From Marsupella aquatica (taxonomy: Eukaryota > Plantae > Marchantiophyta), in the NCBI GenBank assembly GCA_973895155.1, contig OZ316892.1, forward strand, positions 16,978,357-17,042,356: a stretch of DNA of 64,000 bases. The letters run 5' to 3'. A program made the translations under genes and the position numbers. How positions within the stretch are numbered: position 1 is the stretch's first letter; each line of letters begins with the position of its first letter. The notes under the pieces are model-generated. The model searched no databases, had not been told where the DNA came from, and saw only the letters and a program-made list of their open reading frames with translations. Of this stretch, positions 1,706 through 27,100 are shown in pieces.

Positions 1706-4700
1706 TTAGAGACATTATGGTGCCAAAGTTGATGTTCTCCTTGCAATTTGCTACACTACTAATAAATGTTCTTGCAGAACAACTCCTGCTGGCTGGCAGC
1801 GTAAGAGGTTCAATTCCTCTTGGGAGTACATTCTATAGCACAAAATGCCATTCATAGTCATTGCCAACCTTATGGAAGAGTATAACTGATACTGGTTGAT
1901 GCATGACAGAGGTGCCAAATTCCCTTTGGGAGTCTTCACCTTATTGACATACTTCACTCTCCGAGTCATTCTGCATTTTTGCTTCAGTTTATTTCAATGT
2001 TCTTTTCTCCCCTTTCAAAAGGTGTTGAAATACATACACTCTATAGTTTTAGTGGTAACATCTCATACAAAAAAGGGAAACAACTCCAATTGTTTGTTTG
2101 GCCATGAAGAGTCTCCCAATGTCACATTTTCCACAAAACTAGGCAAAGAAAACCAATTATATTCCACAATTTAGGGGTTCTTTTGTTCGCTTTTTATTTA
2201 GTGGTGGCCAAGTTATAAACTGAGTCGAATTCATAGGACTTCAAAGCACAAACCCCCCCCCCCCAAGCAAACCACAAATCAAGTAAAGACTCCTAACCAT
2301 ATAAGGTTGTTTGGCCATGATAAACAAAAACATGACATACAAGTCATTTTATATAAGTACAAAAACTTGACATAGCAGTCAACATAGTAACATTGTATCC
2401 CTCCAGTCTGAGGATGGTAAACACTCAAAAATGGTTGGAACACTATGGGTGCCAGGTCTCGGCCCTTCTCATGGAAATTATCCCCTGCAACATTGGTATG
2501 GAATAAATTAGCATAGAGGTAACATAAGAGATACCCTAAATTACAAGATCCATTCCACACTAGGTTTTCGAATGCAAAAAAATCCTGAACAATTCTTCAC
2601 TCACATGAGATATGTTAGCCGAGGTCTTATATGGAGGTCTCGCTCCATATGTACGCTGACTTTATCTGGACACAATACTTGGGTGGTACTATCTCCATAG
2701 GATGTCATGAAATCATCCTACAACAAAAACTCAGTACAATATATTAGAATTATTATGAACAAGCGCTATATCCTTACATTTCCTTGTACCAGTCAAATTT
2801 AGTCAGTATTTTTTACCTCATGGACATGACACTCCATAAATGCGCTCACTTGTAGCGTCCTTCCAACTAGTGGTCTAGTCCACCAATACTCTTGTTCGAG
2901 GAGGGCGCTCCCTGACAGCAGTATTCACGGGTGTGCGAGCATATACCTTCCAGACATGCCTTCTGATATTCTCGTTCCAATCCATGGCAGCACAACACAA
3001 ACGGGCCTCGTGACTGGCTGAGAAATGAATGCGCTTTGTCGCATATTTGCCCATCACGGAATGGTAAGTCTCTGACATGAAATTCTCCCGGGCCATGGTA
3101 TAAAACCTCATCTTCTCGGGAGTAATGTATTTTTTCAGAAAATTCTGCATGGCCTTATGAGTCTCGCCACCTACATGTACAAAAAAAAATCAATAATAAG
3201 TCGTGCATAACATGCAATCTTGCTTACCTAACCAAGTCACATTTCACAACAGAATTACATAAGTCAACACAAATTTTACCATTCTCATAGTAACGGTCAA
3301 GCTGGATGGCCCCAGGCTCCTCAAGATGCTGACATGGTCGATCAGACAATCTCGCACATAATCTGTGATCGCCGGCCCAATGATCACCACAGTTACCCAA
3401 CTCAAAGGCCAAGGATGCAGCATCTCCCCCACTGCATAGTGGACATTCCAATTACTTAGTCTTGTGAAATAATATGTAAGTTACCCATCCCACACTTAGT
3501 ACACCTACAAATGTAAAACCTCAAAATTCACACCCTATCCAATATTATGCATACCTGCTCTTACATCGCCGACAACATACGTAGAACCATGTCTTCAACT
3601 TTGTGGCAATGTTGTGTTGAGACAGCTCTGGGTACTTGAGGCCACGTGTTGCAATATGTATCAGTTCTCCAGGTGGCAACCCACGCATGTCCCCAACTTT
3701 ATGGACCAGTGCCTCCTTCCTAAGGGCAGAGTACCCTCTCACACCCCTAGCCTTCAACCAGTCCTACAACTTCTTAGCCGTAACTGCTTGCAACTCAGAA
3801 CGGGATGCAGCTCTATCAATATCAATGGTCACAGTGTAGGTGGCACTCACCATCTTCTCCACAAACTTCTTGATAAGGTTTTTGGCCTTATGCCACAAGT
3901 CTTTCTGGTTCCGCATTCCCATGTTCTCCACAATGTTATCAATAGTGGCCTTGTCGTCATGGATGACCTCAGTGATAGAGATCCATGCCTCTCTCAAATT
4001 ATCTAGTGCCCTTTGAGTACCCTTGTCCTCCATGTGCCAAGCATTTCTCTCTTCTCTCCTGGTAATTGTAACCATCTCAATTATCCTATTATCTTCAACA
4101 TTGAGGAGAGAGGTGGTACCATGATAACCGCTCCTCGAAGAATCCCATCGAGTATCCAAGTACACCACTAATCCAGGGTCTGTCATTACAAAGCATACAT
4201 ACAAACTATGAGAACTAGATCAAACCAAAAAATTGGTAAGAAGAGCATGACCCTTGAGTACCCAAAAAAATCAAGTAGGATTTATAACGGTCAATTACTT
4301 ACCAGTGTTAGTTGCTCGGCTCTGCTCAATGTCATCCTTTAGCTGCTGCCACATATGACTTTTGTTTTCATTCCATTGTTGTTTTACAGCTGCTATCCAT
4401 CCACCCCGAGGACGTCCACGACCACTTTGAAAGTCGTGCCAATGAGCTGCAGTAGGAACATGTAAGCCAATGTGTGCTACAACAGCAGCCAAAGAGGTAT
4501 AGGTGAGGCCTGCACAAAGGGTGGAATGATACAACTGGGGGGTAATCATAGGAGAAGACCTCCCAGGCTCATTCTCGCCTGTAATATAAGTCCAACCATG
4601 ACCAACCTCCCCACATCCAATGTGAATTGACCAAAGTTGATGCAACTCGGTCACTCGCTCAACTCTTGGAGTCCTCAAACATCCATGTATATGACATCGA

Positions 4701-5370
4701 GGTAGTAGCCTGTCCACAAAAGTAGCCACCAGGTTGCGATCAAAAAATGCAATTGTAGCTGGAAGACGAGGTGCTGCTCTACGAGTCGGTTGTGTGTCAG
4801 GAGATCCTGTAGGCTGAGAGTCAGGAACTAGAGAAGGCAAAGGGTCAACGGTTGGAGCCGCTCCTGTAGGTTGAGAGTCAGGGACAATGGATGGCTCCTG
4901 GTACAAGAAACCCACAAACTTGGTGGTCAAACATTTTCTCTTTTGTTTATAATTATAAAAAAATGAACTTTGATACTAGAGTGGTGGAAGGAGAGGATTC
5001 ATACTTGTAAGTCTCCCTCATCCACATTGATGTTTGCTCCTAAAGCCACAAGAGTATCTGGATCATCCTCGCGATATAATTCTTCATCTTCCGCATCCGA
5101 AGCATATTGCTCAGCAATGTCCTCCTCCAAGAGAATATCATCCAACACATGTGACTCCGTAGCATCCTGGACAATGTTATTGGAATCATAGATGATACAA
5201 GAACTTTTGAAAATAATACATTTTTATTCTGGGAAGTGTCATGACACAGGTCTATGGTAATCCAAACCCTAAACATGACCCAATAAATAAAATCATAGTT
5301 TAGAATAGTGTTTGGCATTATGTATGATAATCTTATGGTTTATAATGTGTGTAACCTAATTGTAGTGACC

Positions 5371-5538: not shown

Positions 5539-5995
5539 TGTTGAGCATAGACGACGATCGCAACGGCAAGCCCATGAACCATCCAACGCACAATAGTCGA
5601 CACAAGAGATACGTGGTTCACCTCCTTGAGGCTACGTCCACGGGAACACACAAGAGAACTTTACTGAACTCTAAGCCCGTCGGCTATACCGAGTCTCCAC
5701 AGTGTAAGCTCTCCCTATCTCTCAAGTGGCTCCATAACAATGAGCCTTGGTTCTACCTCTCCAAGCACACATGCCTCTTATGATATAGTGTGCAACTTAG
5801 TTGTACCTAACCACATAGTTGTACCTAATCACGTAGTTGTACCTAACCACATAGTTGTACCTAATCACGTAGTTGTACCTAACCACATAGTTGTACCTAA
5901 TCACGTAGTTGTACCTAACCACGTAGTTGTACCAACCCACGTTGTTGTACCAACCACGTCATACCTAACCTAGACGTAAGAGTAAATACCCAACA
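5539..5995 (-). repeat. copia 3' LTR (457 bp) with an ~9 x 18-bp U3 minisatellite (5798-5958)
   Basis: TGTTGAGC...CCCAACA; unit TAGTTGTACCTAA(C/T)CAC(A/G). The adjacent purine tract (- strand AGTCAAGGGGAAGAT, 5996-6010) is the PPT. Confidence 0.95.
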
Positions 5996-6186
5996 ATCTT
6001 CCCCTTGACTCTGGTCTAGGGGAGAGTAATACTGCCAATGTATATGATCCCTCAGCGGGAAGTTCTGGACAGAAACCAAACCGGTTTCCCTCTCTAACTA
6101 GAGCAAACCAGAACTAAGCCGTAGCCTAATACATAGGAATGAGGAAGAGCATATATCAGTAATTACAATGAATGTTTAAGAAAACT

Positions 6187-9100
6187 CTACTTGTGATGCA
6201 ATTGCAAAACCTGCAATACGTCACGGTGTCTAGAGAAACTCTCCAAAGGAATCACTTTGGTAAATGCGTCAGCCGGGTTGAGTTTACCATCAATCTTGAC
6301 TAGCTCAAACAATTTATCAGACACAGCCTGCCTGATAAAATGGTACCTGACGTCAATGTGCTTCACTCTGCTGTCCATCACCTGGTTCACAGCAAGGTGG
6401 AGCGCACTTTGACTATCACAATGGAGCTTCACATTCCCCTGTGGCAATCCCATTTCAGTGATAAGTCTATCCAACCAAATCGCTTCCTTTGCTGCTTCCG
6501 CAGCTGCAACATACTCCGCTTCTGTAGTAGACTGAGCAATACACTTCTGCAAAGTAGACCTCCAACTTATGCATCCACCGCCAAGTGTGAACACGTATCC
6601 TGTTGTTGATCTCCTTCGGTCCAAATCTTGTCCATAGTCAGAATCTACATAGCCAATCAATGATCTAGCATTCTTTGCATTCGCATCAAATAAAAGACCA
6701 TGATCCACGGTACCCTTCAAGTACCTGATAATCCACTTCACTGCTTCCCAGTGTACCTTCCCTGGATTCGACATGTACCTGCTCACCTTGCCCATAGCCA
6801 TGGCAAGATCAGGTCTAGTGCAAGTCATCAAATACATGAGACTCCCCACTGCCTTGTCATATGGAACCTTTGACATCAACCCCTTCTCTGTGTCATCCGT
6901 AGGACAGAACGCTGATGATAACTTGAAGTGTGGAGCCAACGGGGTACTTACTGGCTTGCTATTCTCCATGTTGAACCTTGCAATTACCTTCCTCGCATAA
7001 CTGCTCTGCGTCAACCATAGCTTGCCAGCCTCCAAGTCCCTAGTGATCTCCATACCCAAAATCCTCTTAGCTGGCCCTAAGTCCTTCATCTTAAACTCTG
7101 CACTAAGCAGTGCCTTGAGCTTAACAATCTCAGACCTATCCTTGGCTGCAATTAGCATGTCATCCACATAAAGTACTAAAACAATGAACCCAAAGACAAC
7201 ATTCTTCACCGGTTTCAAATACACACAAGGGTCAAATACACTTCTGTGAAAACCTTGTGACCGAATCCAATCGTCAAACCGCTTGTTCCACTGTCTTGGT
7301 GACTGCTTCAACCCATACAAGGATTTCAGCAATCTGCAAACCAATTCCTCCTGTCCTCTCTTCACAAAACCTAGCGGTTGTCTCATGAAGATCACCTCTT
7401 CCAATGTGCCATAGAGGAAAGCTGTGACAACATCCATCTGATCTAGGAGCAGACCAAACATTACAACAAGTACACACAATAGTCGTATTGTAGAGTACTT
7501 AGCAACTGGTGAGAAGACCTCATTGTAATCCACACCTTTCTCTTGTGTGAATCCCTTTGCTACCAATCTAGCCTTGTAGACCTTCGATCCACCTCCTATG
7601 GAATTATCCTTCAGCTTGTAAATCCACTTGCTGTCCACCACTTGCTGACCCTTAGGCAGCTTAACAAGCTCCCAAGTTTTGTTGTCCTTTAGTGACTGCA
7701 TCTCTGTTTGCATTGCTGCAGTCCACTTTTGCTTCTCCTTTGAAGCACTTGCCTCATGAAATGAAGAAGGTTCTCCTTCTTCCAAAATTAACGCATCACC
7801 CTCATCATCAGCTGTAAAATCATCCTCTTGCAGTTGAGATGAATCAACCCACTGTCCATACCTTGATGGAGCGCGTACAGTGCGACCAGATGTTCTTCTA
7901 GCCGATGACTCCGGTTGATCTGCGTGTGCTGGTACAATTTGAAGCTCAACAGCATCCACTTGCTGCTCACCAGCATCAACAAACTCCTCTGGTTCCTCTG
8001 GCACAGGAACCAGCTCCATAATTGGAGCAACTCCTTCTCTCCGGTCATGCACCTCATAACCAATCTCCCCCTCAACGAGATCCGGGATAGGAGATTTTCT
8101 TTTGTCAGTACGGGAGACCTGAGTATTCTCCCCCTCCTTCAATAATCTGGATTCATTGAAGGAAACATCCCTACTGACAACGAGCTTACAGGCAATAGGA
8201 TCCCATAGCCTATAGGCTTTCACACCACTCTGGTACCCAAGAAAAACACATTTCCTGGAGGTAGGATCCAACTTGGTCCTATTCTGCTTTGGTGTGAGAG
8301 CATATGCATCACTTCCAAAAATTACCAAGCCATGATAGTCTGCTTGCCGCTTATAGCGCATCTCAAACGGCGTTTTGAAATTGATAGCACTAGAAGGAGA
8401 AAGATTTACCAAATAAGCTGCGGTATTGACAGCTTCTGCCCAAAATTCTTGTGGTAAACCTGATTGGCTCAACATACTCCGTGACCGCTCCAACAGTGTC
8501 CGATTGAGCCTCTCAGCGACACCATTCTGCTGCGGAGTATAAACTGTGGTGAGATGGCGAGTTATCCCCTGTTCTGAACAGTACTCTTCAAATTCCATTG
8601 AAGTGTACTCCCCGCCGTTGTCTGACCTCAAACTCTTCACCCTTGTATCCAAACACTTGATCGTGTTTCCAGTCTGATTCTCCACCTGGGCCTTCCATTT
8701 CTTAAAAATGGACAAGACATCAGACTTATGCGTCATGAAATAAATCCACACAAATCTTGAGTAATCATCAATAAATGATACATAGTACAACTTTCCAGAG
8801 TGTGAGGGAGTCGGGGATGGACCCCACACGTCACTATGTATGTACTCAAGAACCGCTTTGGAACGATGAGTTCCAACACCAAAAGCACGACGATGCTGCT
8901 TTCCAAGAATGCAATGCTCACAAAACTCTAATTTACAAGATTGCAAATCAGAAATGAGTCCATTCTTCCGTAAGATAGCCAAACCCTTCTCACTCATGTG
9001 GCCTAGCCGTGAATGCCACAGTTGAGTCATCTCCTCGTGAGACTTGGTTACATTGGCCTCTCCACATACAGTATTGCCCTGTAACACATACAAATTCTTT

Positions 9101-9459
9101 TGTCTACTCCCCTTCAAAATCACTGTCTCTCCCGACCTGACTTGAAGTTCACCATCAATAACGCTCCATTGATGACCATTTGAATCCAACACACCGAGTG
9201 AAATCAGATTCTTACGCATGCCAGGTACATACCTGACTCCGGACACTGTGCGCACAGCGCCATCAAACATTTGAATCTTCACAAACCCAATTCCCTCAAT
9301 TTGACAGGAGTGATCATTTCCCATCAGAACTGAACCGTTTGAAATAGAGTAAGAACTGAAAAACTCACGAATGTAACAAATATGAAAAGAGCAAGCACAA
9401 TCAAGAATCCACACATCATCTGCTCTCCTAGATGACGTGCACAGGGCATACCCCCGGCT
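6187..9459 (-). CDS. copia Pol (protease-integrase-RT-RNase H), in frame with gag beyond the gag TGA
   Basis: WILDCACSFH (protease, variant of DSG), WHSRLGH..CEHC, HSDVWGP, RSDNGGEY, YKARLVAKG, YVDDML, YVDSD, KHIDVRYHF. The frame is open from 9459 to the stop at 6187. Confidence 0.95.
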   Translation of the reverse strand, partial: SRGYALCTSSRRADDVWILDCACSFHICYIREFFSSYSISNGSVLMGNDHSCQIEGIGFVKIQMFDGAVRTVSGVRYVPGMRKNLISLGVLDSNGHQWSVIDGELQVRSGETVILKGSRQKNLYVLQGNTVCGEANVTKSHEEMTQLWHSRLGHMSEKGLAILRKNGLISDLQSCKLEFCEHCILGKQHRRAFGVGTHRSKAVLEYIHSDVWGPSPTPSHSGKLYYVSFIDDYSRFVWIYFMTHKSDVLSIFKKWKAQVENQTGNTIKCLDTRVKSLRSDNGGEYTSMEFEEYCSEQGITRHLTTVYTPQQNGVAERLNRTLLERSRSMLSQSGLPQEFWAEAVNTAAYLVNLSPSSAINFKTPFEMRYKRQADYHGLVIFGSDAYALTPKQNRTKLDPTSRKCVFLGYQSGVKAYRLWDPIACKLVVSRDVSFNESRLLKEGENTQVSRTDKRKSPIPDLVEGEIGYEVHDRREGVAPIMELVPVPEEPEEFVDAGEQQVDAVELQIVPAHADQPESSARRTSGRTVRAPSRYGQWVDSSQLQEDDFTADDEGDALILEEGEPSSFHEASASKEKQKWTAAMQTEMQSLKDNKTWELVKLPKGQQVVDSKWIYKLKDNSIGGGSKVYKARLVAKGFTQEKGVDYNEVFSPVAKYSTIRLLCVLVVMFGLLLDQMDVVTAFLYGTLEEVIFMRQPLGFVKRGQEELVCRLLKSLYGLKQSPRQWNKRFDDWIRSQGFHRSVFDPCVYLKPVKNVVFGFIVLVLYVDDMLIAAKDRSEIVKLKALLSAEFKMKDLGPAKRILGMEITRDLEAGKLWLTQSSYARKVIARFNMENSKPVSTPLAPHFKLSSAFCPTDDTEKGLMSKVPYDKAVGSLMYLMTCTRPDLAMAMGKVSRYMSNPGKVHWEAVKWIIRYLKGTVDHGLLFDANAKNARSLIGYVDSDYGQDLDRRRSTTGYVFTLGGGCISWRSTLQKCIAQSTTEAEYVAAAEAAKEAIWLDRLITEMGLPQGNVKLHCDSQSALHLAVNQVMDSRVKHIDVRYHFIRQAVSDKLFELVKIDGKLNPADAFTKVIPLESFSRHRDVLQVLQLHHK

Positions 9460-10464
9460 TCATAAAACATACTCATCATTGAGTAAATCAGCTTCTCCAT
9501 CAGCCCTAGCCACATTTGCCGATGAAGTTTCCGCTGCCTTTCCCTTACAGTCTCGCTTGAAGTGTCCAACTTGGTTGCACTTCCAACATGTCACCTGCCT
9601 CCTCTGAGGGGATTTACCCTTGGACTTAGATCTGGATTTAGATCTAAACTGGGTTCTACGGTCCCCAGTTGGTCGCTGCATACTCCTCCCACGGTTAACA
9701 TTGAGGGCAGCACCAGATGATGAAGGCTGTGACGTGATGTGCATCTTCTGCTGAAGATCATCACTAAGCAGAGAACTTACCACGTCATTGTATGAAATGG
9801 TATCCCTATCACGATGCAACAACACTCGTGATAGGGACTGGTAAGATGGAGGCAATGAACTAAGAAGCTGCAGAGCCTTCGTCTCATCATTCAAAGTCTC
9901 CCCAAGGTTTTCCAAGTCAACGACCATGTCGTTGAAAGCATCCACATGGTCTTGCAACTTCGTACCAGATTCCTTCATCCTGAAACTCATCAGTTTGTAG
10001 GAAGTGTAGAGCCGGTTCGACAACTCCTTGCGGTGATACTTGCTCTGCAATTCCGCAAATAAGGACATGCAATCCTTATGTGCACCCAACTGCTTGATGA
10101 TGGGAGGCATGAGATAGAGTGTAACACACCACACTCCCTGCTCCTGCATGCGGTCCCATTGTTTCTCATCAACATCGTCTTCACGAGGGCTCAGCAGTTG
10201 GCCCATCCCTGACGCATAAAGCACTCCCTTCACCTGCTTCTCCCATAGCAAGTAGTCAGAGCGCCCATCATACTTTGTCACTTCATACTTGGGTCCCCCA
10301 AGCTTGAAAGTCCCCATCTTCTTCTTTACCGTGAGCTCCGGTAGTAGTACTGCTTCCTCCACCACACGCCGCACCGGTGATGGTATCGGTGTCACGTGCT
10401 CTTCCTCCTGCTCCTCTCTCTGCCCCTGAAACCTCCGCGGTGATCCTCGTGCTTCAAGTTCCAC
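9460..10464 (-). CDS. copia Gag with CCHC zinc knuckle
   Basis: KYDGRSDYLLW, LLSSLPPSY, CWKCNQVGHFKRDC; ends DEYVL-TGA. The true start may be the ATG near 10317 (MGTFKLGG). Confidence 0.9.
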   Translation of the reverse strand: MELEARGSPRRFQGQREEQEEEHVTPIPSPVRRVVEEAVLLPELTVKKKMGTFKLGGPKYEVTKYDGRSDYLLWEKQVKGVLYASGMGQLLSPREDDVDEKQWDRMQEQGVWCVTLYLMPPIIKQLGAHKDCMSLFAELQSKYHRKELSNRLYTSYKLMSFRMKESGTKLQDHVDAFNDMVVDLENLGETLNDETKALQLLSSLPPSYQSLSRVLLHRDRDTISYNDVVSSLLSDDLQQKMHITSQPSSSGAALNVNRGRSMQRPTGDRRTQFRSKSRSKSKGKSPQRRQVTCWKCNQVGHFKRDCKGKAAETSSANVARADGEADLLNDEYVL

Positions 10465-10874
10465 GTCTTGTCAACAACGAATGTTGATCAATTGCACTTG
10501 GTGCCGTCACCAAGTCCAACAAGGTAATTGATTTTGCTTAGCCTTCCTCTTTGCATCAAAGAGCCAATCCCGGACTCAAAAACAATCGTCTTGCCTCAAT
10601 CTCTCCGTTGAGTCAAAACACTTGACGCTTCTCCCTCCGAGTCGATTGCCAACTTTCTTCACAAAATCCAGAACGACGAAAACTTAGATCTCTCTGCACC
10701 ACGAGCTCCGTTCAACGATTTCTTCACACCGTTAGAAAGCTCTTGCCCTGATCTATCCGTTGAGCCCATAAACTCCAAGTTCCATGCGATGGAACTCTGG
10801 AAAATCCACCAACACTCAACGCTGGAAAAACCGTCATGAAATCCCGTCACGAACACACGTCACCTCCCAAGCAT

Positions 10875-10886
10875 GCTCTGATACCA
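10875..10886 (-). promoter_or_regulatory. copia primer-binding site, tRNA-iMet
   Basis: TGGTATCAGAGC on the - strand, 2 nt inside the 5' LTR boundary. Confidence 0.95.
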
Positions 10887-10888
10887 AT

Positions 10889-11345
10889 TGTTGAGCATAG
10901 ACGACGATCGCAACGGCAAGCCCATGAACCATCCAACGCACAATAGTCGACACAAGAGATACGTGGTTCACCTCCTTGAGGCTACGTCCACGGGAACACA
11001 CAAGAGAACTTTACTGAACTCTAAGCCCGTCGGCTATACCGAGTCTCCACAGTGTAAGCTCTCCCTATCTCTCAAGTGGCTCCATAACAATGAGCCTTGG
11101 TTCTACCTCTCCAAGCACACATGCCTCTTATGATATAGTGTGCAACTTAGTTGTACCTAACCACATAGTTGTACCTAATCACGTAGTTGTACCTAACCAC
11201 ATAGTTGTACCTAATCACGTAGTTGTACCTAACCACATAGTTGTACCTAATCACGTAGTTGTACCTAACCACGTAGTTGTACCAACCCACGTTGTTGTAC
11301 CAACCACGTCATACCTAACCTAGACGTAAGAGTAAATACCCAACA
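10889..11345 (-). repeat. copia 5' LTR (457 bp)
   Basis: Matches 5539-5995; followed by the TSD ATTTC. Confidence 0.95.
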
Positions 11346-11954
11346 ATTTCATGGTTTGGTTTAGGGTATTATATTAGATAAGTTATATAAGTTAGATAAG
11401 TTATATATATGTCAAAACTATGAGTACATGGAACTAATAACTATAAATGAGTAATTGAGAGAGTGTCCGCACCTGATATGGTCGTGAAGGCTGACCTGGA
11501 TCCTGCTAAGCGGTGGGCGATGGTACTGCCTCAGGTGGAATTTGAGCTGCCTCCGCTTCTCGCCATGACCAAAGCTCTTGAACCACGGGTCGCACTCGAT
11601 CGAGCAGCCATGTCACAACGGTAGAGTGTGTTGTGTCTGGTCCAAGCAAGCCTCGGAGGTCCTCCCACTCATCCCACCGTTCAAGTGGGACCCGGATTTC
11701 TGGCTTGGCATCCGGTCTCCGTCTCTTCTTGTAATCTATATCATCACTCGGATAACGTTGTCTAGGTGGACCCCCTCCCCTTGGGCGACTTTTCCGCCTC
11801 CCATCTGGGAGATCCGGGGGCTGACCCCCGGTGCTCATAGAACCCTACCCTAACCCTAACCCTAACCTCTAAGAAAATACCCCTAACCTCTACAACATAG
11901 ACCGAATGCCAAGCCAAACCCGGTAAAACAAAAAATAAATTGACAAAAATAAAT

Positions 11955-14051
11955 TGTGGTGCGACCCATGGCTCCCTAAACCCAAGAAACCCCCCAGCTC
12001 AAGCCGATTCCCGCAGGTTTCGTGCTTGGCGAGGCCGTTTCCGCGGCTTAGCGGCATGGGACGCTGCTAACCTTCTACTACTACTATTAACATTTTACAC
12101 ACATATACTGGACAGATCCTTCATCGGGTCATGAGATACGTAGCCGGCCTAATATAGGCCTTCCCCTGTCTTCCCCTGTCTTCCCCTCCGTCTTGTTAGG
12201 TATGTTTGGATTCCGCCGCCGGAATGATCCCCAATAGGCTTGGTTAAGCCGCTAAGACCTCTCTCAGCTCGACACATCCAACTCTCACTCCCCTGCTTAC
12301 TTTCCTTCCTTCTGTTGATGTGGGCACTCTTCACACAAGTTAATGCGACACACAAATAGCAAAATGACTCATTCTGACTGAGTCATACCATGCACTTGCC
12401 ATACAAACAGTACATCTCATACACAAGTTCTGCGAACTAAGCCGTGAGGCCAACTCTATTCAGCTCTTAGGCATGAGGAAACATGAATATACACAAGGGT
12501 CACTGTATGACTAACCGAGAGCTTCTCGTACTACTTGATCCCAGCCCGGCTGGTGCAAACTAAAAACTTGCTAAAGAAGAGGCCCTGAGCTCCCCGCTGC
12601 CCAGGTACTTATCCTGGTAGTGGATCCGCCATTCTTTGCATCGTAAGCCTAATCTACTTAACAGTAATCTACTTGCCCGAATCTACCTATGTACAGCAAG
12701 GCAGGAGCACAAGTGTTGCTCCTACCAGTGGGACCGCAATCCCACTAAGCTAAGTGTCAGGGCCGCTCCTGGTTCTGATCCTAATCCTAAACGTGGAGAT
12801 CCGCGCCCGCCCTGCCCACTCACGCCTCCTCCCTCCACGTCCGCCCTCCCTAAAAGGAACGGCGCCCTTGCACCGTCACGACACCGGTGGTGGATCCTCA
12901 ATGGACGCCCCCAACACTTCCTCCTCAGCCACTGCCGTTGGCCCGCCTACTGACAGATTACCTGCCCTTGACCGAGTCAACTCTCCATCGGCCTGACTGG
13001 GTCCACCTTCGGCTTCAGCCATGGTAATCTTACAAAGGCCTCCAAGACGGATCCGGCCATGAAGCCTTGGTACTTCTTGGTCTGCATGGCTGTAAAGCAT
13101 GCATCCTCCTCCCGTGCAAAATGTAGTTGCACCTCCACCGGTAGGGTTGCCGCCCAGCCCTTCCAGGTGTCATCCCTGGTTGGAATGGCCTTGATGGGAT
13201 CGACCTCCTCCTCTTCGGCTTCTCCCTGCCTCCTGCTCTGCTGCTCGGCTGGCTTCTTTGGTGCCGCCGACCTCGTTCTTTTTGCCGGGGTGGCTTCATC
13301 GTTGACGGCTCCCTTCCTCTTCATCTCTGCTGCCGTGGAGGTTTCTCCTAGCACCGTTGCCTGGGTCCACCTTTCCGTGCTACCCTTTAATTCCCAGTGT
13401 ATGTCGTTGCAGTTCTTGATGGCCTCTCGGATGCCGACGACGCTGTCTTTGCAAAACAAAAGATCGTCGAGTTGATTGGAAGTAGGCGTCCACAAGAACT
13501 CGTCCTTGATGAGTTCGCCTCCTAAGAAAGCCGTCTTTTGCAGCTCCCACAATCGAGCGAGCTCCTGCCGTTCTCGAGCTGCCCTTTCTGACTCCTCGTC
13601 CTCGTAAGTCTTGATGTACTCAGTTGCCCGTTCGAACAGGCATCCCCAGAAATGTGCCGCTTGATTGACGTTGCTCATACCCTCCTTAGGTTGATCGTCG
13701 GTATCTACTCTCTCCCCGAGTGCTTGCCTAAGCAGCTGACAGTAGTTGGCCTCCTGTAGTCGTCTACCTAGTTCGTGCTCGCAAATGAGCCACCATCTCC
13801 TGCAAGCGCTCCTTACCCCTCTCCTCTGCCGGTCCTTCTTCCCGTTGATCCTTCCTAGCCGCCGACGCTTAACGCGCCCAAACCCTAATCGGGTTTTCAC
13901 CCTCAGCCTTACCTCCGGCCTCTGCCCGGGTTCCATGGTTGCCCCTAATTGTTTATATTTTCCTTGTTTTGTCACTATACTAAGGTGTTCCTAGGGTGCC
14001 TTCCTGCTTTACCCACTTAACCGGCCGAGTGATTCCTGTCTAGGCATCACA
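11955..14051 (-). repeat. gypsy 3' LTR (2097 bp)
   Basis: Copy of 20276-22372 at offset 8321 with at least 8 substitutions found by eye. A PPT-like TTAAGTGGGGAGCTA abuts it (14052-14066, - strand). Confidence 0.95.
12977..13936 (-). CDS. LTR-encoded orphan protein (319 aa from the ATG at 13936; 332 aa from the upstream GTG), 3' LTR copy
   Basis: Open in both LTRs. Arg/Lys-rich N-terminus, helical charged middle, bipartite-NLS-like KRKGAVNDEATPAKRTR, no transmembrane stretch. 5 of 6 coding differences between the LTRs are synonymous. Confidence 0.7.
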   Translation of the reverse strand: MEPGQRPEVRLRVKTRLGFGRVKRRRLGRINGKKDRQRRGVRSACRRWWLICEHELGRRLQEANYCQLLRQALGERVDTDDQPKEGMSNVNQAAHFWGCLFERATEYIKTYEDEESERAARERQELARLWELQKTAFLGGELIKDEFLWTPTSNQLDDLLFCKDSVVGIREAIKNCNDIHWELKGSTERWTQATVLGETSTAAEMKRKGAVNDEATPAKRTRSAAPKKPAEQQSRRQGEAEEEEVDPIKAIPTRDDTWKGWAATLPVEVQLHFAREEDACFTAMQTKKYQGFMAGSVLEAFVRLPWLKPKVDPVRPMES

Positions 14052-17000
14052 TAGCTCCCCACTTAATTGTGAAGCGTCCTCGCGAACAACTTCATCTTCG
14101 TCCATATAGTATTTCTTGAGGCGGTCATAATGGATGCGAACTGGATATACCTCTCCCGTAATGTTGGCCAATTGCACGGAGCCATTGGGGAACATCATGG
14201 TTACTCTAAAGGGTCCTAACCAGCGAGTGTAAAGCTTTCCTGGAAACCTACTATACCTACTGTCATAAAGTAGCACAAGATCACCGGTATGAATACTAAC
14301 TACTTTTAACCTTTTATCATACTGCTGCTTCATGATATTCTGTCTATATTCTACTCTCTCGGCTGAAATCATTCTCGTTTCCTCTAAAGCTTCTAACCTA
14401 TATTCTCGCTCCTTTAGGCTCTCCTCCGCTGAGGCTCTTTCCTCAATTGTAACTTGAAATGTCGGTATCTCAAGTTGCATGGGTACCAGGGCTTCTTGTC
14501 CAAAGGTTAAGAAGAAGGGTGTGTGACCGGTAGTGGATTTATAGGCCAGATTGTAAGCAAAAACAGCAGCAAACAATTTATCATCCCAATCGAGTTTGTT
14601 CTGAGCTACTGTCTTGTTCAATATCTTTCCTATGATTCCGTTTGCTCGTTCTGTCAACCCGTTTGCCTTTGGATGGTAGGGAGTAGTAGGCCTATGTTTA
14701 ACTAAATACTGCTCATTTAAACGACTAATTATATCATTCAAAAAATGGGTTCCTCTATCACTAACTAATTCTAGGGGTGCTCCATACCTGGTGAAGATCT
14801 GCTCATACATGAATCTAGCCGTAGTAATTGCATCATCCTTCGTTGTTGGTCTGGCCTCTACCCATTTAGTTGCATAATCCGTAGCCAGGATTATGTACTT
14901 GTTCCGTCGAGGGTGGGTCAGTGGTTTCAGAGGTCCAATGTAATCAATACCCCACTTCTCGAATGGTGCCAGAGGTAGAATAGGGTGCAGTGGATGCCTG
15001 GTGGACGCCCTTGGTCCTCCCGCTCGTTGACAAGGATCGCATTGTTTGATAAACTGATAGACATCTTTGTGCAAGGTGGGCCACCAGTAACCGGCATTTA
15101 ATATCTTCTTAGACGTGGTTACTGGGGCAAAATGTCCTCCGGCCTCCTCTCCATGCATGGCCCGTAGGACTCGTTTTACCTCTCTCTTCTCCAAACACCT
15201 TTGAATCGTGCCGTTGATTCCATGCTTGTGCAGTATGCCTTTAATGCACTGATACTGTCTGACCTTCCGCACAAAGACTGCGGCTTGCTCTCGGCTTAAT
15301 CCTGGCTGTAATCTGGAAGTGCTGAGAAATTGTAAAATCTCAGGGTACCATGTACCAGCTATTTCCACAACGAATAGCTCCTCGTCGGGGAATCGATCAT
15401 TGATGCAATCCGTGGCAGGTTTACCTGTGATCCTTGAAAAGAAGTCGACATTGGCATGTAACTTTCCTGGCTTGATCCTCAGCTCATAGTCAAACTCCTG
15501 TAATAGCAAAATCCATCTTGCTACTCTGCCTGTAAGGTCCGGCTTATTGACTAGGTACTTCAAACTTTCATGATCAGTATGAAAGATTACCTTGTACCCT
15601 AGTAAATAATGCCTAAACTTTTTACAAGAATAAATGACTCCTAATGCTTCTCTTTCCGTGGTAGAGTAGTTCCGTTCGGCATCAGCAAGCTGACGGCTTG
15701 CGAAGTATATGGGATGGTCCCTTCCTTTCTCATCTAACTGACTTAGTACTGAGCCAATACAGAAGCCCGAGACATCTACAAAAACATGAAAATCTTTGTT
15801 CCAGTCCGGTGCTATCATGACTGGGGCCTCTACTAACATCTGCTTCAATTCTACCACCGCTGTGACTCGTTCGGGTGTGGGTTCGAAGTCTGCTCCTGCC
15901 TTGAGCATATTGGTTAATGGTAAAGCTAGCTTGGCAAAATCCTTGATGAACCGGCGATAGTAACCAATGCATCCCAAGAAGGATCTTACATCCTTTATGT
16001 TCTTAGGTTGCATGATATCTAGCCATACTGCTAGCTTACCTTTGTCAATCTCAATGCCCTTCCTTGATACCTTGTGACCTAGTAGCACCCCCTCGGTTAC
16101 TGCAAAAAAACATTTATCTGGGTGTAACTTGAGACCCACCTCTCTACATCTCATGAAGGTTTTCCTGAGGTATTTAGCATGTTTCGATGCCTTCCCGAAT
16201 ACTGCAAAGTCATCAATGAAGATTTCCATGAACTTTCTCAAGTAATCATGAAAAATGTTCACCATTAATCGTTGGAACATAGCTGGTGCGTTGCAGAGTC
16301 CAAACGGCATACGATTGAAGACATAGATCCCCCATTCCGTGATGAAGGCCGTCTTGATTTGGTCTTCTTGCCGAATCCTGATTTGGTTATAACCAGAGTA
16401 TCCATCCATGAATGAATATAGTTCATGACTGGCTACCATGTCTAGTACCATATCAGTAAACGGTAAAGGAAAATGGTCTTTTAATGTTGCTTCATTCAGC
16501 TTCCTGTAATCCTGACAAACCCGGATCTTCGGTTTACCATCGGGTCCAGCTTTCTTGGGAACTATCACAATTGGAGACACCCAGTCTGAATGCAGGACTG
16601 GAGTGATGAATCCAGCTTCCACTAGTTTGTCGATTTCTGTTTTGACCAGCAGGGAATACTTCGGGTTCATCCTTCGAATTGGTTGTCGAAATGATTTGGC
16701 TCCTAACATGAGATCAATTCGATGTTCCCCTAGTGTTGGATCTACTCCCTTTAGATCTTGGTGACTCCATGCAAACACATCCTGAAATTCAATCAATAAG
16801 TCACTGATCTCTTTCTCGAGCTCAGGTGCTAGGTTTCTCCCTAAGTTCAGTTCTCTTCCCTCTCCTAAGTCGAGCTTCCGATATTGCCGTGCTTGGATCA
16901 TATTAATCTGCTTCTTCAAATTCGGGTCCAGTTCGGCTTCCAGTCTCTCTAATCTCATACCTCCATAAACTGGGATCTCGGCTGGACTAGCCGAGTCGGT

Positions 17001-17282
17001 CCCTTCCTTGGTGTCCATAGATTGTCCCCTTACCGGTCTATTCGGTTTTGAATTAGTGGTCGGCTCCCCTTCCTGCCTTGGCTCTGGATCGTGTCTGTCC
17101 ATCTCATCCACCTCTTGCTCCTGAGAGTTAGGCCGCTGTGCTCTCTCGGCTTCTTATAGGGCCTCAATTTGTTCTGCCCTCGTAATCGGCTTGTATGCCG
17201 ATCCCTTGGTATTTAATTCCTTGCCGATGATCGATGGCGTTGTGGACCCCGTCGGCTCTGCCACAACGCCTGCGGAAAATCC
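14040..17282 (-). CDS. gypsy Pol (RT-RNase H-integrase), reached by a -1 frameshift; TAA at 17154-17156 interrupts the transframe linker in this copy
   Basis: WVSPIVIVPKK, DYRKLN, MPFGLCNAP, FIDDF, FVDVSG, YSTTERE, GHF..CDPC, WGIDYIGP, SDRGTHF, ANGLTER, WLGPF. The stop codon lies inside the 3' LTR. Confidence 0.92.
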
Positions 17283-20253: not shown

Positions 20254-20271
20254 CCCCTCCATCTAGCGCCA
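20254..20271 (-). promoter_or_regulatory. gypsy primer-binding site, probably tRNA-Asn
   Basis: TGGCGCTAGATGGAGGGG next to the 5' LTR; complementary, with one mismatch, to the 3' end of plant tRNA-Asn(GUU) as I recall it (CCCUCCUUCUAGCGCCA). Confidence 0.75.
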
Positions 20272-20275
20272 AAAA

Positions 20276-22372
20276 TGTGGTGCGACCCATGGCTCCCTAA
20301 ACCCAAGAAACCCCCCAGCTCAAGCCGATTCCCGCAGGTTTCATGCTTGGCGAGGCCGTTTCCGCGGCTTAGCGGCATGGGACGCTGCTAACCTTCTACT
20401 ACTACTATTAACATTTTACACACATATACTGGACAGATCCTTCATCGGGTCATGAGATACGTAGCCGGCCTAATATAGGCCTTCCCCTGTCTTCCCCTGT
20501 CTTCCCCTCCGTCTTGTTAGGTATGTTTGGATTCCGCTGCCGGAATGATCCCCAATAGGCTTGGTTAAGCCGCTAAGACCTCTCTCAGCTCGACACATCC
20601 AACTCTCACTCCCCTGCTTACTTTCCTTCCTTCTGTTGATGTGGGCACTCTTCACACAAGTTAATGCGACACACAAATAGCAAAATGACTCATTCTGACT
20701 GAGTCATACCATGCACTTGCCATACAAACAGTACATCTCATACACAAGTTCTGCGAACTAAGCCGTGAGGCCAACTCTATTCAGCTCTTAGGCATGAGGA
20801 AACATGAATATACACAAGGGTCACTGTATGACTAACCGAGAGCTTCTCGTACTACTTGATCCCAGCCCGGCTGGTGCAAACTAAAAACTTGCTAAAGAAG
20901 AGGCCCTGAGCTCCCCGCTGCCCAGGTACTTATCCTGGTAGTGGATCCGCCATTCTTTGCATCGTAAGCCTAATCTACTTAACAGTAATCTACTTGCCCG
21001 AATCTACCTATGTACAGCAAGGCAGGAGCACAAGTGTTGCTCCTACCAGTGGGACCGCAATCCCACTAAGCTAAGTGTCAGGGCCGCTCCTGGTTCTGAT
21101 CCTAATCCTAAACGTGGAGATCCGCGCCCGCCCTGCCCACTCACGCCTCCTCCCTCCACGTCCGCCCTCCCTAAAAGGAACGGCGCCCTTGCACCGTCAC
21201 GACACCGGTGGTGGATCCTCAATGGACGCCCCCAACACTTCCTCCTCAGCCACTGCCGTTGGCCCGCCTACTGACAGATTACCTGCCCTTGACCGAGTCA
21301 ACTCTCCATCGGCCTGACTGGGTCCACCTTCGGCTTCAGCCATGGTAATCTTACAAAGGCCTCCAAGACGGATCCGGCCATGAAGCCTTGGTACTTCTTG
21401 GTCTGCATGGCCGTAAAGCATGCATCCTCCTCCCGTGCAAAATGTAGTTGCACCTCCACCGGTAGGGTTGCCGCCCAGCCCTTCCAGGTGTCATCCCTGG
21501 TTGGAATGGCCTTGATGGGATCGACCTCCTCCTCTTCGGCTTCTCCCTGCCTCCTGCTCTGCTGCTCGGCTGGCTTCTTTGGTGCCGCCGACCTCGTTCT
21601 TTTTGCCGGGGTGGCTTCATCGTTGACGGCTCCCTTCCTCTTCATCTCTGCTGCCGTGGAGGTTTCTCCTAGCACCGTTGCCTGGGTCCACCTTTCCGTG
21701 CTACCCTTTAATTCCCAGTGTATGTCGTTGCAGTTCTTGATGGCCTCTCGGATGCCGACGACGCTGTCTTTGCAAAACAGAAGATCGTCGAGTTGATTGG
21801 AAGTAGGCGTCCACAGGAACTCGTCCTTGATGAGTTCGCCTCCTAAGAAAGCCGTCTTCTGCAACTCCCACAATCGAGCGAGCTCCTGCCATTCTCGAGC
21901 TGCCCTTTCTGACTCCTCGTCCTCGTAAGTCTTGATGTACTCAGTTGCCCGTTCGAACAGGCATCCCCAGAAATGTGCCGCTTGATTGACGTTGCTCATA
22001 CCCTCCTTAGGTTGATCGTCGGTATCTACTCTCTCCCCGAGTGCTTGCCTAAGCAGCTGACAGTAGTTGGCCTCCTGTAGTCGTCTACCTAGTTCGTGCT
22101 CGCAAATGAGCCACCATCTCCTGCAAGCGCTCCTTACCCCTCTCCTCTGCCGGTCCTTCTTCCCGTTGATCCTTCCTAGCCGCCGACGCTTAACGCGCCC
22201 AAACCCTAATCGGGTTTTCACCCTCAGCCTTACCTCCGGCCTCTGCCCGGGTTCCATGGTTGCCCCTAATTGTTTATATTTTCCTTGTTTTGTCACTATA
22301 CTAAGGTGTTCCTAGGGTGCCTTCCTGCTTTACCCACTTAACCGGCCGAGTGATTCCTGTCTAGGCATCACA
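20276..22372 (-). repeat. gypsy 5' LTR (2097 bp)
   Basis: Near-identical to 11955-14051; followed by the TSD TAAAT. Confidence 0.95.
21298..22257 (-). CDS. LTR-encoded orphan protein, 5' LTR copy
   Basis: Same ORF as 12977-13936, with one R>W change (21891). Confidence 0.65.
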   Translation of the reverse strand: MEPGQRPEVRLRVKTRLGFGRVKRRRLGRINGKKDRQRRGVRSACRRWWLICEHELGRRLQEANYCQLLRQALGERVDTDDQPKEGMSNVNQAAHFWGCLFERATEYIKTYEDEESERAAREWQELARLWELQKTAFLGGELIKDEFLWTPTSNQLDDLLFCKDSVVGIREAIKNCNDIHWELKGSTERWTQATVLGETSTAAEMKRKGAVNDEATPAKRTRSAAPKKPAEQQSRRQGEAEEEEVDPIKAIPTRDDTWKGWAATLPVEVQLHFAREEDACFTAMQTKKYQGFMAGSVLEAFVRLPWLKPKVDPVRPMES

Positions 22373-22623
22373 TAAATGAATGGGCAAATCCAAAGGGAAA
22401 GAGAAGAGAAGAGAAAAGAAAAAGTACCTTGGGAAGTCAATTTGCAAATGAGGCATTGTGTACCCACATTGCCCCTTTTGCCCTCATGCCCCTCCTCCCC
22501 ACTGCCTTGTACGTACACCTACTGAAACCCTAGGAAGACCTTGAGGTGGCGGCTATTTTATCTGTTTTGGCTCTATTTTGGCACCCCCATAGGGAGAGCA
22601 ATCACGGATGCAAAACATGCACG

Positions 22624-24168: not shown

Positions 24169-27100
24169 TTCCCCAGGAAGTATGGTAGGGTTCAGGCATT
24201 TATACACACATTTTGTAATGGAACAAATAAATTATGAGAGTGACAAAACATGTCAAATAATAAGACAAAAGTTCAAACACTCTTTTACAACTCATGAGAG
24301 ATGGAAATATTCAACAATAATAAAGTCTGTAATACTCAATATAGTGCATAATTAATATGCCAACTAGCCCAACAACACAATACAAGTAAATTGCTCTCAT
24401 CTCTTACTTGTCTTCAAAGGAGAAACTATCTACAATAATAACAAAAAATTCAAAAACCAATTAGACCAAATGTGAATATAAAAAAAGGTTACATAAGCTT
24501 AGGTCACATCCCTCATCAATGAAATATATTTGAATATAAACAAAGGTGATTTTGAGTGTGCAACATCCTTGTACCTGAGATCAGTTAGTACGTTCAGTGA
24601 GATCTAAGATGGAGGCCCTACTCCATAGATATGTTGACTTGTCTCCTCCTTCCAATTTGTAGTGCGGTCCACTAATACTCGTGAATGAGAGGGTCTATCT
24701 CGAACAACAGTGTTCATTGCTTGATGGTCAGAACCTTCCAAACATGTCTCCTTATATTTTCGTTCCAATCCATAGCAGTACAACACAAATGAGCCTCATG
24801 TGTAGCTGAAAAATGGATAAATTTTGTGGCATACTTTCCTATTACCAAAGGGAAAGTCTCAGACATGAAATTTTCACGGGCCATGGTATAAAATCGCATT
24901 TTCTCTAGCCTTATGTACTTTGCCATAAAAACTTTCATGGCCTTATGAGTTTCTCCACCTACATTCTCCATAGATGAATTTGATTATTTTCTATCATGAT
25001 TACCACATTGATATACAAAATACAAACATTGAATGATTTGGAAACCTATATTAAATTTATAGGATAAAGTTTAAATTTTACCCATCTCATAGTACAAGTC
25101 CAACTGTGAAGCATTAGGTTCTCCAAGATGTTGACAAGGTCGGTCAGACAGAGTCATACACTTTTGATGATCATCGGCCCAATGATCAACACAATTTCCT
25201 AGCTCAAAAGCCAACAAATCACTATCCCCGCCCCTGCATTGCAAAGTAGTAAAAACATAAAATATATTAGAAATTCAACCCAACAAGTTAACATATATTT
25301 ATTTAATAAAAAAGCATATTACAAAAAAATTGTCCTTACTGCATGAATGTTGACATACCTATTTTTACATGTTTGACCACACACAGAGATCCAAGTTTTA
25401 AACTTGCTTGCCAAATTATGCTCCACCAACTCTGGAAACTTTAGACCACGAGTGGAAATATGCACTAGGTCCTCCTCAGGGAACCTACGCAAATCACCAA
25501 CTTGATTAACTAACTCCTGTTTCCTCCAATTAGAGTAGCCCCTCACACCACGATCCTTCAACCAGTCTTTCAACTTCTTATTTGTAACCACTTGCAAATC
25601 AGAACGAGATATTGCAGTATCTATGTCAACAATAAGAGTAAATGTGGCACTTGCCAACTTCTCCACAAATTTCTTCACTAGGTTTTTTGCTTTATGCCAT
25701 AACTCCTTTTGGTTTATGAATCCCATATCCTCAACAATTCTATCTACGGTACTCTTGTCATCATGAATGACCTCCTTAATTATCACCCGTGCCTCCATAA
25801 AAGTCTGTAGTACCTTTTGCGTTCTTTTGTCCTCCATATACCAAGAATTGCTCTCATCTTTTTTACTCACGGTGACCATGTCAAGAACTTTATTATCATA
25901 GCTGTCAATGATGGAGGAAGTACCATGATACCCACTCCGAGAAGAATCCCAACGACAATCCAAAAACACTACTAATCCAGGAGCTGCAAAAAAGCATGTA
26001 AGGGAAATATATTGTGGGGAAAAGCTAATTGTAGCACTAAATACCATCCAATTATAATAAAATGTATTTTTTTAATTTTAGTCTAAATTGCATAATGATG
26101 GTGACAAAATTTGTTGCACATAAGTCTCCAATTTTTTTAATCTTATTAATGACTGCAAATGGTAGTCTAGTTTATAGTACAAACCTTCTTCAACTGCACG
26201 TTGTTGTTGAAGTCAAATTTTGACATCCTCCCGTATCTTCTTTTTGTTTGCATCCCATTGTTGCTTCACAACATCTATCCATCCAGCTCAAGGTCATCGA
26301 CATCCACTTTGGAAATTATGCCAATGGGTTGGAGAAAGAACATGCAGACATAAATGCAATGTTATAGCAGCTAGAGTAGTAAATGTGAGACCAACACATA
26401 GGGTGGAATGATACAACATAGGGGTCACCAAAGGTGTGTTCCTCCCTGGCTCATTCTCTCCTGTTACACATGTCCATCCATGTCCATCTTGGCCATAACT
26501 GATTCTAATCTCGATTCTAATGGACCAAAGTTGTTGCAACTTTTTAATGCACTCCACTATTGGAGTCAATGAACATCCATCAATTCGGCAACGAGGATGT
26601 AGTCTCTCAACAAAAGTATGAATTAAGTGTCGATCAAAAAATGCTACTTTAGCCGGGTGATGAGGCAGTGACCTACGTGTAACTGGTGGGTCAGAGGTTG
26701 ATGGTATTGATTGTGAGTATGATGGTAAGGATGGTTGCAAGGCAGGTGATTGGGAATCCAGAACTACCACTTCCTAATTGCATAGAAACATTAATAATAA
26801 GTAACCTTCAACAAAATGCAAAGGTGTCATGTAAAATCACACTATCATTGGTGCAGAATTTAATAAATGAAATAATGCACCTCCTCAAGTATGGCAGCTC
26901 CCCCGATAGCTCCTAAAGCATAAATAACTGTTGTTTCTTCATCGCAGTAATTGGCTTCATCCTCTTCATTTGAGGGGTACTCTTCAACAATAAGCTCATG
27001 CAATTCCTCTTGCTCTTCCAAATTAACATCACTTGTTAGAGATTGTTGGCTCTGTAACAATTAATCAATGACATGTTTGCATCACAATATAGCTAGGTAT

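Follow-up and report, generated by a model that had tools for sequence, protein, structure and literature searches.

A probable accessory gene within both long terminal repeats of a Ty3/gypsy retrotransposon of Marsupella aquatica

An accessory reading frame in both long terminal repeats

Analysis of a 64,000-nucleotide stretch of the genome of Marsupella aquatica (Marchantiophyta; GenBank assembly GCA_973895155.1, contig OZ316892.1, positions 16,978,357 to 17,042,356 of the forward strand; the whole stretch is referred to as the window) revealed a Ty3/gypsy retrotransposon of 10.4 kb that carries a sense open reading frame (ORF) of 319 codons in each of its two long terminal repeats (LTRs; Table 1). 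Judged by the variation among related sequences, this accessory ORF is a real, selected, and lineage-restricted gene. The interpretation put forward here, to which a probability of about one half is given, is that a selected gene of 319 codons lies in both LTRs and likely represents a sense accessory gene proper to this lineage, likely shortened in-frame and coding for a nuclear nucleic acid-binding helper produced from a short transcript of its own. A preliminary description of this DNA had proposed a nuclear accessory factor encoded in the LTRs; the selected frame wholly inside both LTRs holds, whereas the probable deletion from a longer two-domain gene had been missed.

In a self-comparison of the window, the element appeared as a single 2.1-kb direct repeat, the copies of which are 8321 nucleotides (nt) apart. 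The presence of a sense ORF of 319 amino acids (aa) in each 2097-bp LTR, as described before, is borne out by the TG and CA ends of the LTRs, the target site duplication (TSD), a primer binding site (PBS), as well as a polypurine tract (PPT). The ORF occupies LTR nt 116 – 1075, its stop-to-stop frame opens at LTR nt 62, and its ATG is located 103 nt beyond the stop codon of pol, in agreement with the 115 bp into the LTR and the approximately 100 nt after pol of the preliminary description. The end coordinate given there for the ORF (13975) needs correction, as this position is 39 nt upstream of the ATG.

It is barely credible that the repeat is not an LTR pair but a tandem element, a segmental duplication, or an assembly artefact, or that the ORF is a by-product of a purine-rich composition. 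Such a false case does occur in the metagenome locus L001, which contains a 4.6-kb repeat with an env-like ORF. Here, however, as far as one assembly can show, the ORF comes after a PPT and TG, the other copy is followed by a PBS, the two copies together are bounded by a 5-bp TSD, and eight sites differ between them. Moreover, an ATG-initiated ORF of at least 319 codons was found in none of 1000 copies of the LTR simulated with an order-2 Markov model (99th percentile, 193) and in none of 1000 Markov copies of LTR nt 1 – 1100 (99th percentile, 205). An alternative start of the LTR, at the PPT-TG of LTR nt 1136, was rejected, as its T (12916) is replaced in approximately 55% of the depth of X1, one of the public runs introduced below. 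Locus L001 (1-4617 and 12557-17173) was also rejected as a precedent for an ORF inside an LTR, since its LTR begins after the stop of the env-like ORF of 1226 aa; its near-identical 4.6-kb repeat, which includes most of this ORF, represents a tandem or looped assembly and is a trap for claims of this kind.

Selection on the reading frame

The stretch was present in part in 14 out of 15 listed runs (nine studies, several organism labels), with at least half of its words in five of them; none of the 15 runs is recorded as RNA and one may be the source of the window itself. Variants were taken from contigs of seven public runs (labels beginning with X) and from the best 40 of 399 and the best 40 of 104 alignment rows. 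Among these best rows, 45 variant sites were found in the ORF, namely 21 synonymous and 24 nonsynonymous ones, none of which introduced a stop. The synonymous share exceeds the 26.7% expected from the X1 substitution spectrum (p = 0.003), corresponding to a ratio of nonsynonymous to synonymous polymorphism (pN/pS) of 0.42. Similarly, the X1 sites with a share of at least 10% (24 of about 55) comprised 14 synonymous versus 10 nonsynonymous ones (p = 0.001; pN/pS of 0.26). Leaving out the four sites common to the LTR pair resulted in p values of 0.03 for the set of 45 sites and 0.02 for the X1 set. The two other sense frames contained 12 and 10 synonymous sites out of 45; one antisense frame contained 22, because its wobble position is shared with the ORF frame, and it is not open along its full length. 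Replacements were concentrated at codons 75 – 83 and 210 – 238, and the core codons 84 – 200 (limits picked post hoc) had seven synonymous versus two nonsynonymous sites.

Insertions and deletions (indels) were distributed along the LTR in line with a maintained frame. Among the best 12 of 30 indel rows, 11 concerned 1 – 2 nt in the 3' half of the LTR, which is non-coding, and one concerned an insertion of 3 nt in the ORF; the 11 non-coding rows represent about seven events, including two cancelling pairs (p = 0.03). The full table of an alignment restricted to the ORF contained seven indel rows, all of them from X8 and with net sums of 0 and +6; no ORF indels occurred at a 10% share in X1 (6489 contigs), X7, and X9. 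In X4, nine indel rows were found in the non-coding half. The preliminary description had named a dN/dS ratio near 1 combined with frequent frameshifts as grounds for abandoning the gene; instead, pN/pS values ranged from 0.26 to 0.51 and the ORF indels kept the frame. The summed contig depth was higher for the LTR than for pol, a difference that was not used as copy number.

A probable in-frame shortening of a longer gene

When 1.84 billion representatives were searched exhaustively with HMMER (E <= 0.001), five homologues of the accessory protein (P0001) emerged, all of which are unnamed single Logan proteins (P0122 – P0126; 33 – 41% identity, E values of 3e-10 to 9e-4). Four of them span P0001 residues 91 – 246. 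In P0125 (288 aa), it is the N-terminal part that matches residues 247 – 317 of P0001 (34% identity over 97 residues), and this protein extends approximately 200 aa past the match to the C-terminal part of P0001.

Contigs of the public runs revealed two junctions in the same region. Four listed contigs (X1 twice, X2, and X8; 81 – 86% identity) and one X6 contig cease to match the window at 13004/13005 (codon 311), the minus-strand record coordinates of these breakpoint contigs being read as inferred from another row. When the loose end of the X6 contig was translated in-frame by eye, six out of ten residues, including an LLEF motif, were identical to P0125 in register. Furthermore, six X1 contigs start in a different sequence, which codes for a Pro-rich stretch, and join the window at 13013. 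An overlap of 9 nt (13013-13005) exists between the two junctions, as would be left by a deletion that joined short repeats, and the 319-aa ORF probably arose from a longer gene with two domains through such a deletion, which kept the frame. An insertion in the long-form copies, rather than a deletion in the short form, is formally possible but leaves the match with P0125 unexplained. Given a probable deletion, selection may predate the shortening and is demonstrated for the gene as such rather than for its 319-aa form, which may thus be a remnant.

Indeed, although somewhat unlikely, the 319-aa ORF could be a crippled remnant, the functional gene being the longer two-domain form of sister families, and the short form riding along in the U3 region of the LTR and being complemented in trans if its product is needed. 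The ORF ends about 65 residues into the domain that is best kept in the sister contigs, a microhomology scar occurs at the junction, the copy in the 3' LTR has R123 where the homologues and the 5' LTR have W, and this copy of the element has a stop in the pol frame ahead of the pol ATG. Conversely, the deletion is in-frame and a natural-looking tail and stop were retained, its presence in both LTRs means that it has gone through a replication round, no frameshift reached a 10% share in X1 across 960 nt, and the core codons 84 – 200 display the above-mentioned excess of synonymous sites (7 versus 2).

The accessory protein and its relatives

The accessory protein has a molecular mass of 36.9 kDa and an isoelectric point of 8.9. 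The basic N-terminus (net charge of +10), the KRK-x10-KRTR motif (residues 206 – 222), and the lack of a transmembrane (TM) segment (maximum 19-residue hydropathy of 0.74) that had been described before were all found again, and the initial basic cluster of the motif is retained in P0122. The helices of the conserved core come from a low-confidence model only. The protein had been considered as belonging to an undescribed family, and no match was found in Pfam, NCBIfam, or the PDB sequences, its five homologues being unnamed.

Other searches covered the accessory protein, the homologue P0125, and the pol region. A word-indexed search with P0001 yielded none of 2753 candidates (lengths of 175 – 559 only), one with P0125 retrieved itself alone among 1635 candidates of a limited length range, and none of six window proteins was matched by exact look-up. 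A metagenome scan with P0001 gave 42 pattern matches, none of which was confirmed, and none of 77 viral contigs was retained when searched with the pol alignment. The metagenome loci (best 80 of 557 confirmed ones) were mostly Athila-like, with 34 – 53% pol identity, and no homologue of P0001 or P0125 was encountered in these 80 loci. A host gene fragment that was captured into the LTR and plays no role for the element is very unlikely in view of these searches, as neither a named nor a cellular homologue turned up (0 out of 2753 candidates of 175 – 559 residues; five Logan fragments among 1.84 billion representatives), and as the frame is common to many contigs of several runs; gene transduction into plant LTR elements is nevertheless known (PMC7264820).

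The single-sequence AlphaFold models were unreliable, with a predicted local distance difference test (pLDDT) score of 40 for P0001 and 37 for the second domain, and a Foldseek search with the latter model (pLDDT of 37) gave no match. By eye, the second domain resembles the start of Athila ORF1, Transposase_32, and plant mobile domain (PMD) proteins, a tentative likeness that was not confirmed. Neither P0001 nor P0125 had an ATHILA, Transposase_32, or PMD match in Pfam, hhalign of the second domain with a profile of eight such ORFs gave a probability of 0.2% and an E value of 0.3 on the eye-matched segment, and the second-domain profile score was outside the top 12 when compared with 1000 shuffles, without any lift. 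Were the likeness true, it would tie the accessory gene to a domain of the MAIN/MAIL1 silencing proteins.

Expression route and possible function

The presence of the accessory gene in both LTRs may be ascribed to the position of the PPT inside the end of pol. Very probably, standard reverse transcription would copy all sequence 3' of pol, the accessory gene included, as U3 into both LTRs, so that the ORF would be placed in U3. A long gene, consisting of the core domain, a linker with a nuclear localisation signal (NLS), the second domain, and a Pro-rich tail, would quite probably have lost most of its second domain, presumably via a template jump between the 9-nt repeats during reverse transcription, after which the short form kept transposing.

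On the genomic RNA, the accessory ORF would be the last cistron; it is in the +1 frame relative to pol. Read-through from pol was rejected as expression route on account of this frame, and because another stop is met in the pol frame near LTR nt 70. A spliced mRNA was rejected as well, as no good acceptor is present near the ATG; at most five T residues occur in the 20 nt before any AG within the LTR. A subgenomic mRNA starting near the end of pol or the start of the LTR appears to be the simplest route; it could plausibly end at the poly(A) site of the LTR, in the way of retroviral internal promoters. A TATA box is typically situated 25 – 35 nt before the transcription start. The TATA box found here (Table 1) is closer than that to the ATG, which leaves room for a true start further upstream; should this start depend on pol sequence, solo LTRs would be silent. 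As to function, the basic arm and the NLS-like motif tentatively point to a nuclear, nucleic acid-binding role; the protein may enter the nucleus by means of its Arg-rich arm and NLS and bind the DNA or RNA of the element itself, favouring its expression against silencing.

Two other ways of expression were considered. First, the ORF might lie in a very long R region, in which case transcription of the genomic RNA would start from the TATA box at LTR nt 94 – 100, its first cistron would be the ORF (from M1 or M87), and gag would be reached by splicing or internal initiation. The single TATA[AT]A match in the LTR and the start of the conserved core just past M87 are in favour of this arrangement, which is nevertheless unlikely, as 20 ATGs are present between the ORF stop and gag, further TATA-like motifs occur at LTR nt 1561 and 1896, and upstream of M87 the frame has been maintained, as shown by in-frame indels at codons 10 – 11 and approximately 41 – 45. 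Second, and rather improbably, a clade of liverwort gypsy elements might have moved a whole regulatory gene into the LTR, where it would form a self-contained unit equipped with a promoter and a poly(A) site; any 5', 3', or solo LTR could then make a nuclear activator or anti-silencer of the family. If true, this would be a plant counterpart of the U3 genes of complex retroviruses, outliving the deletion of the element.

Several observations weigh against a shortened yet working accessory gene with its own transcript. First, the pN/pS values (0.26 – 0.51) are only moderately low, a transitions-only null gives 0.58 (p = 0.048), and the lack of stops is by itself not significant (p = 0.18). Second, the indel thresholds differed between the alignments and, at an equal threshold, X1 had only one non-coding indel versus none in the ORF; X1 alone offers a weak contrast, because just one non-coding indel attains the 10% share. 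Third, the variants stem from contigs in which different copies, and also sister families, are mixed; the signal of selection may therefore have arisen in the long form and is no proof that the short form works. Fourth, the whole long form occurs in no single contig, its junctions come from different runs, and P0122 – P0126 are known as single proteins. Fifth, the TATA box ends just 15 nt before the ATG, and a transcription start 25 – 35 nt downstream of it would miss M1. Lastly, no family, structure, or binding motif supporting a function was found in the database searches.

Comparison with known systems

The extra ORFs of plant LTR retrotransposons are placed in the internal region (PMC7264820, PMC6317226, PMC11963269, PMC11728184). 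Reviews locate extra ORFs internally, and the LTRs of plant elements are regarded as non-coding. In a literature search that covered titles and the beginnings of abstracts, and few subscription papers, no plant retrotransposon was found in which a protein gene lies wholly within the LTR; similarly, passages of PMC3601003, PMC6431247, PMC12885004, and PMC11302176 mention no protein gene within a plant LTR. The present case is an accessory ORF of an unnamed family in an unusual place, with a real chance that its present form is a remnant.

The accessory ORF resembles the env-like additional ORFs (aORFs) of Athila and SIRE (aORF-3S, eORF-3'F) in being sense-oriented, directly after pol, orphan, and family-wide (PMC7264820, PMC6317226). 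Whereas aORF-3S is situated between pol and the 3' LTR, the ORF described here is downstream of the PPT and in both LTRs. In addition, and unlike the env-like aORF-3S, it lacks a TM segment and an ATHILA, Transposase_32, or PMD match in Pfam, and the element falls outside Athila. As an orphan, helical and disordered, and NLS-bearing protein it is comparable to the proposed regulators encoded by GENE23 of Grande, the antisense ORFs of Retand, and the 5' aORF of Tekay (PMC7264820, PMC11963269, PMC11728184); nuclear localisation has been reported for GENE23 of Grande and predicted for the aORFs of Athila and Tekay (PMC7264820, PMC11728184). Yet these ORFs are internal, some being antisense and 3' and others situated ahead of gag, after the 5' LTR, and no sequence likeness tested positive.

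Among retroviruses, the U3 region of mouse mammary tumour virus (MMTV) holds the entire sag ORF and that of human immunodeficiency virus (HIV) part of nef (PMC12789967). An LTR that includes a complete ORF in its 5' part recalls MMTV sag, HIV nef, and the internal promoter of foamy viruses (PMC12789967). Unlike MMTV sag, the ORF belongs to a plant element without env, codes for a soluble basic protein rather than a type II membrane protein, and shares no homology with it. Among plant elements, the Cassandra terminal-repeat retrotransposons in miniature have a 5S rRNA-like sequence in their LTRs, the common point being a gene-derived module in both plant LTRs; Cassandra is non-coding and non-autonomous, whereas the present LTRs contain an ORF for a protein and belong to an element that has gag and pol.

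A selected LTR gene would alter what solo LTRs may do, as the usual host removal route would spare it, and it has a bearing on LTR annotation and on the dating of insertions by LTR divergence. It also provides a small candidate for the open question of the role of plant retrotransposon accessory proteins, the long and short forms being a natural comparison of which domain matters.

Placement of the element among Ty3/gypsy clades

The nearest named relatives of the pol protein are from Calypogeia fissa (64 – 65% identity over the searched region). A quick tree of the reverse transcriptase-RNase H region (64 rows, midpoint root) grouped the element with P0006 (an unnamed ENA protein) and two C. 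fissa proteins, with a Shimodaira-Hasegawa-like approximate likelihood ratio test (SH-aLRT) support of 100, this group being nested in a clade with Riccia proteins (SH-aLRT of 99). The element was apart from loci with ATHILA or Transposase_32 ORFs, indicating that it is not Athila. Furthermore, pol contains one RNase H region only (409-537), and the lack of an additional RNase H argues against Tat, Ogre, and Retand. Also, no chromodomain was hit on the integrase at E <= 1 and pol ends soon after the integrase, which argues against a chromovirus. As regards Phygy and Selgy, the element shares with them the non-chromovirus type, the lack of an additional RNase H, a non-seed-plant host, and a polyprotein that fills the internal region (PMC6317226). 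Those clades are said to be short, in contrast to the OTA group with its extra ORFs, and Phygy prefers NCGN target sites (PMC6317226), whereas LTRs of 2.1 kb, an extra ORF, and a 5-bp TSD of ATTTA were found here. The element can be classed as a bryophyte non-chromovirus, outside Athila, Tat and, by structure, Phygy. Taken alone, the transposon proteins point to a leafy liverwort as the likely host.

The nearest relative by integrase among the fetched loci (L057; 52% identity) has a different sense ORF of 606 aa after pol (2848-4978), without Pfam match; a TATATAAA TATA box and a pyrimidine-rich leader are present ahead of it, and it has no significant likeness to the accessory protein.

Anatomy of the element

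The features of the element are listed in Table 1. GAG, reverse transcriptase (RT), RNase H (RH), as well as integrase (INT) were found by Pfam and, with the protease (PR) recognised by eye, the order is GAG-PR-RT-RH-INT; no Pfam match was found for the protease of gag-pro. The PBS presumably is of the tRNA-Asn type; the window contains no tRNA gene for comparison with it. The pol stop (14040) falls within the initial 12 nt of the 3' LTR.

Table 1. Coordinates of the Ty3/gypsy element and its accessory ORF in the window
Feature	Position	Strand	Remarks
Target site duplication ATTTA, 5 bp	11950..11954; other copy 22373-22377	-	
5' LTR	20276..22372	-	2097 bp, TGTG...CACA; 8 differences with 3' LTR
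Accessory ORF in 5' LTR, 319 aa	21298..22257	-	W123, as in homologues P0123 and P0124
Primer binding site, TGG start	20254..20271	-	4 nt past 5' LTR, tRNA type
gag-pro ORF, 997 aa	17213..20206	-	Retrotrans_gag and CCHC knuckle; protease motif recognised only by eye
Candidate -1 frameshift signal	17223..17282	-	G GAT TTT, 5-nt spacer, 10-bp stem, possible pseudoknot
pol ORF (RT-RH-INT), 1020 aa	14040..17102	-	Stop inside 3' LTR
Polypurine tract	14052..14064	-	Directly before 3' LTR, within pol coding sequence
3' LTR	11955..14051	-	2097 bp, TGTG...CACA
ATATAAA	13952..13958	-	LTR nt 94-100, single TATA[AT]A match in LTR; 15 nt before ATG
Accessory ORF (P0001) in 3' LTR, 319 aa	12977..13936	-	ATG in strong context GCAACCATGG
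Arg/Lys-rich N-terminal arm, ~residues 11-47	13796..13906	-	Net +10 over residues 21-40
Conserved core, helical, ~residues 91-200	13337..13666	-	Common to P0122, P0123, P0124, and P0126
Bipartite NLS-like KRK-x10-KRTR, residues 206-222	13271..13321	-	NLS role inferred from motif
Start of second domain, residues 247-311	13004..13198	-	Homologous to N-terminal part of P0125, cut off
9-nt overlap of both junctions	13005..13013	-	Likely deletion scar

The candidate signal near the end of gag-pro likely links gag-pro to pol by -1 frameshifting, as judged from its sequence. The -1 frame contains a TAA at 17156, ahead of the pol ATG, so this copy of the element may be defective or may use another route. 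In the close relative P0006, gag-pro-pol is one frame. Near the end of gag-pro (17320-17300, minus strand), TAAGTGGGGAGC is the same sequence as the 3' PPT and is situated directly upstream of the frameshift signal; this second occurrence of TAAGTGGGGAGC is possibly a central PPT, or due to chance.

The two LTRs differ at 8 of 2097 sites only, which points to a young insertion. All differences are transitions and six of them are within the ORF, five being synonymous and one causing the W/R difference at residue 123. Five of the eight differences, mostly synonymous, lie inside 112 bp (13459-13570 / 21780-21891; p = 0.002 versus an even spread), and four of these five sites are also variable among the copies in public runs. 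This clustering and shared variation suggest that, instead of mutations that followed the insertion, a patch was acquired from a sister copy through gene conversion or a template switch; such a patch would inflate the LTR-based age.

Regarding the main promoter of the element, candidates are a near-palindrome around a TATA-like motif (12144-12158; LTR nt 1894 – 1908) and a G-rich GC-box-like stretch just past the ORF (LTR nt 1200 – 1250). At 14045-14047, X4 contigs share the end of pol, the PPT, and the initial LTR bases, and then continue with unlike sequence; they are sister families with different LTRs.

Other features of the window

The window further contains a young Ty1/copia element (5539-11347, minus strand), with identical 459-bp LTRs that include an 18-bp tandem array, and with gag (285 aa) and pol (1045 aa) as separate ORFs. 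A NOMO1-like gene (BOS complex; 48673-52317, minus strand) is intronless and codes for 1214 aa. Finally, two copies of an unnamed repeat, approximately 67 – 69% alike, are located at 2831-4800 and 24620-26694; the latter copy contains an ORF of 242 aa with weak Ish1/Rho_N-like hits and is perhaps the remnant of a DNA transposon.

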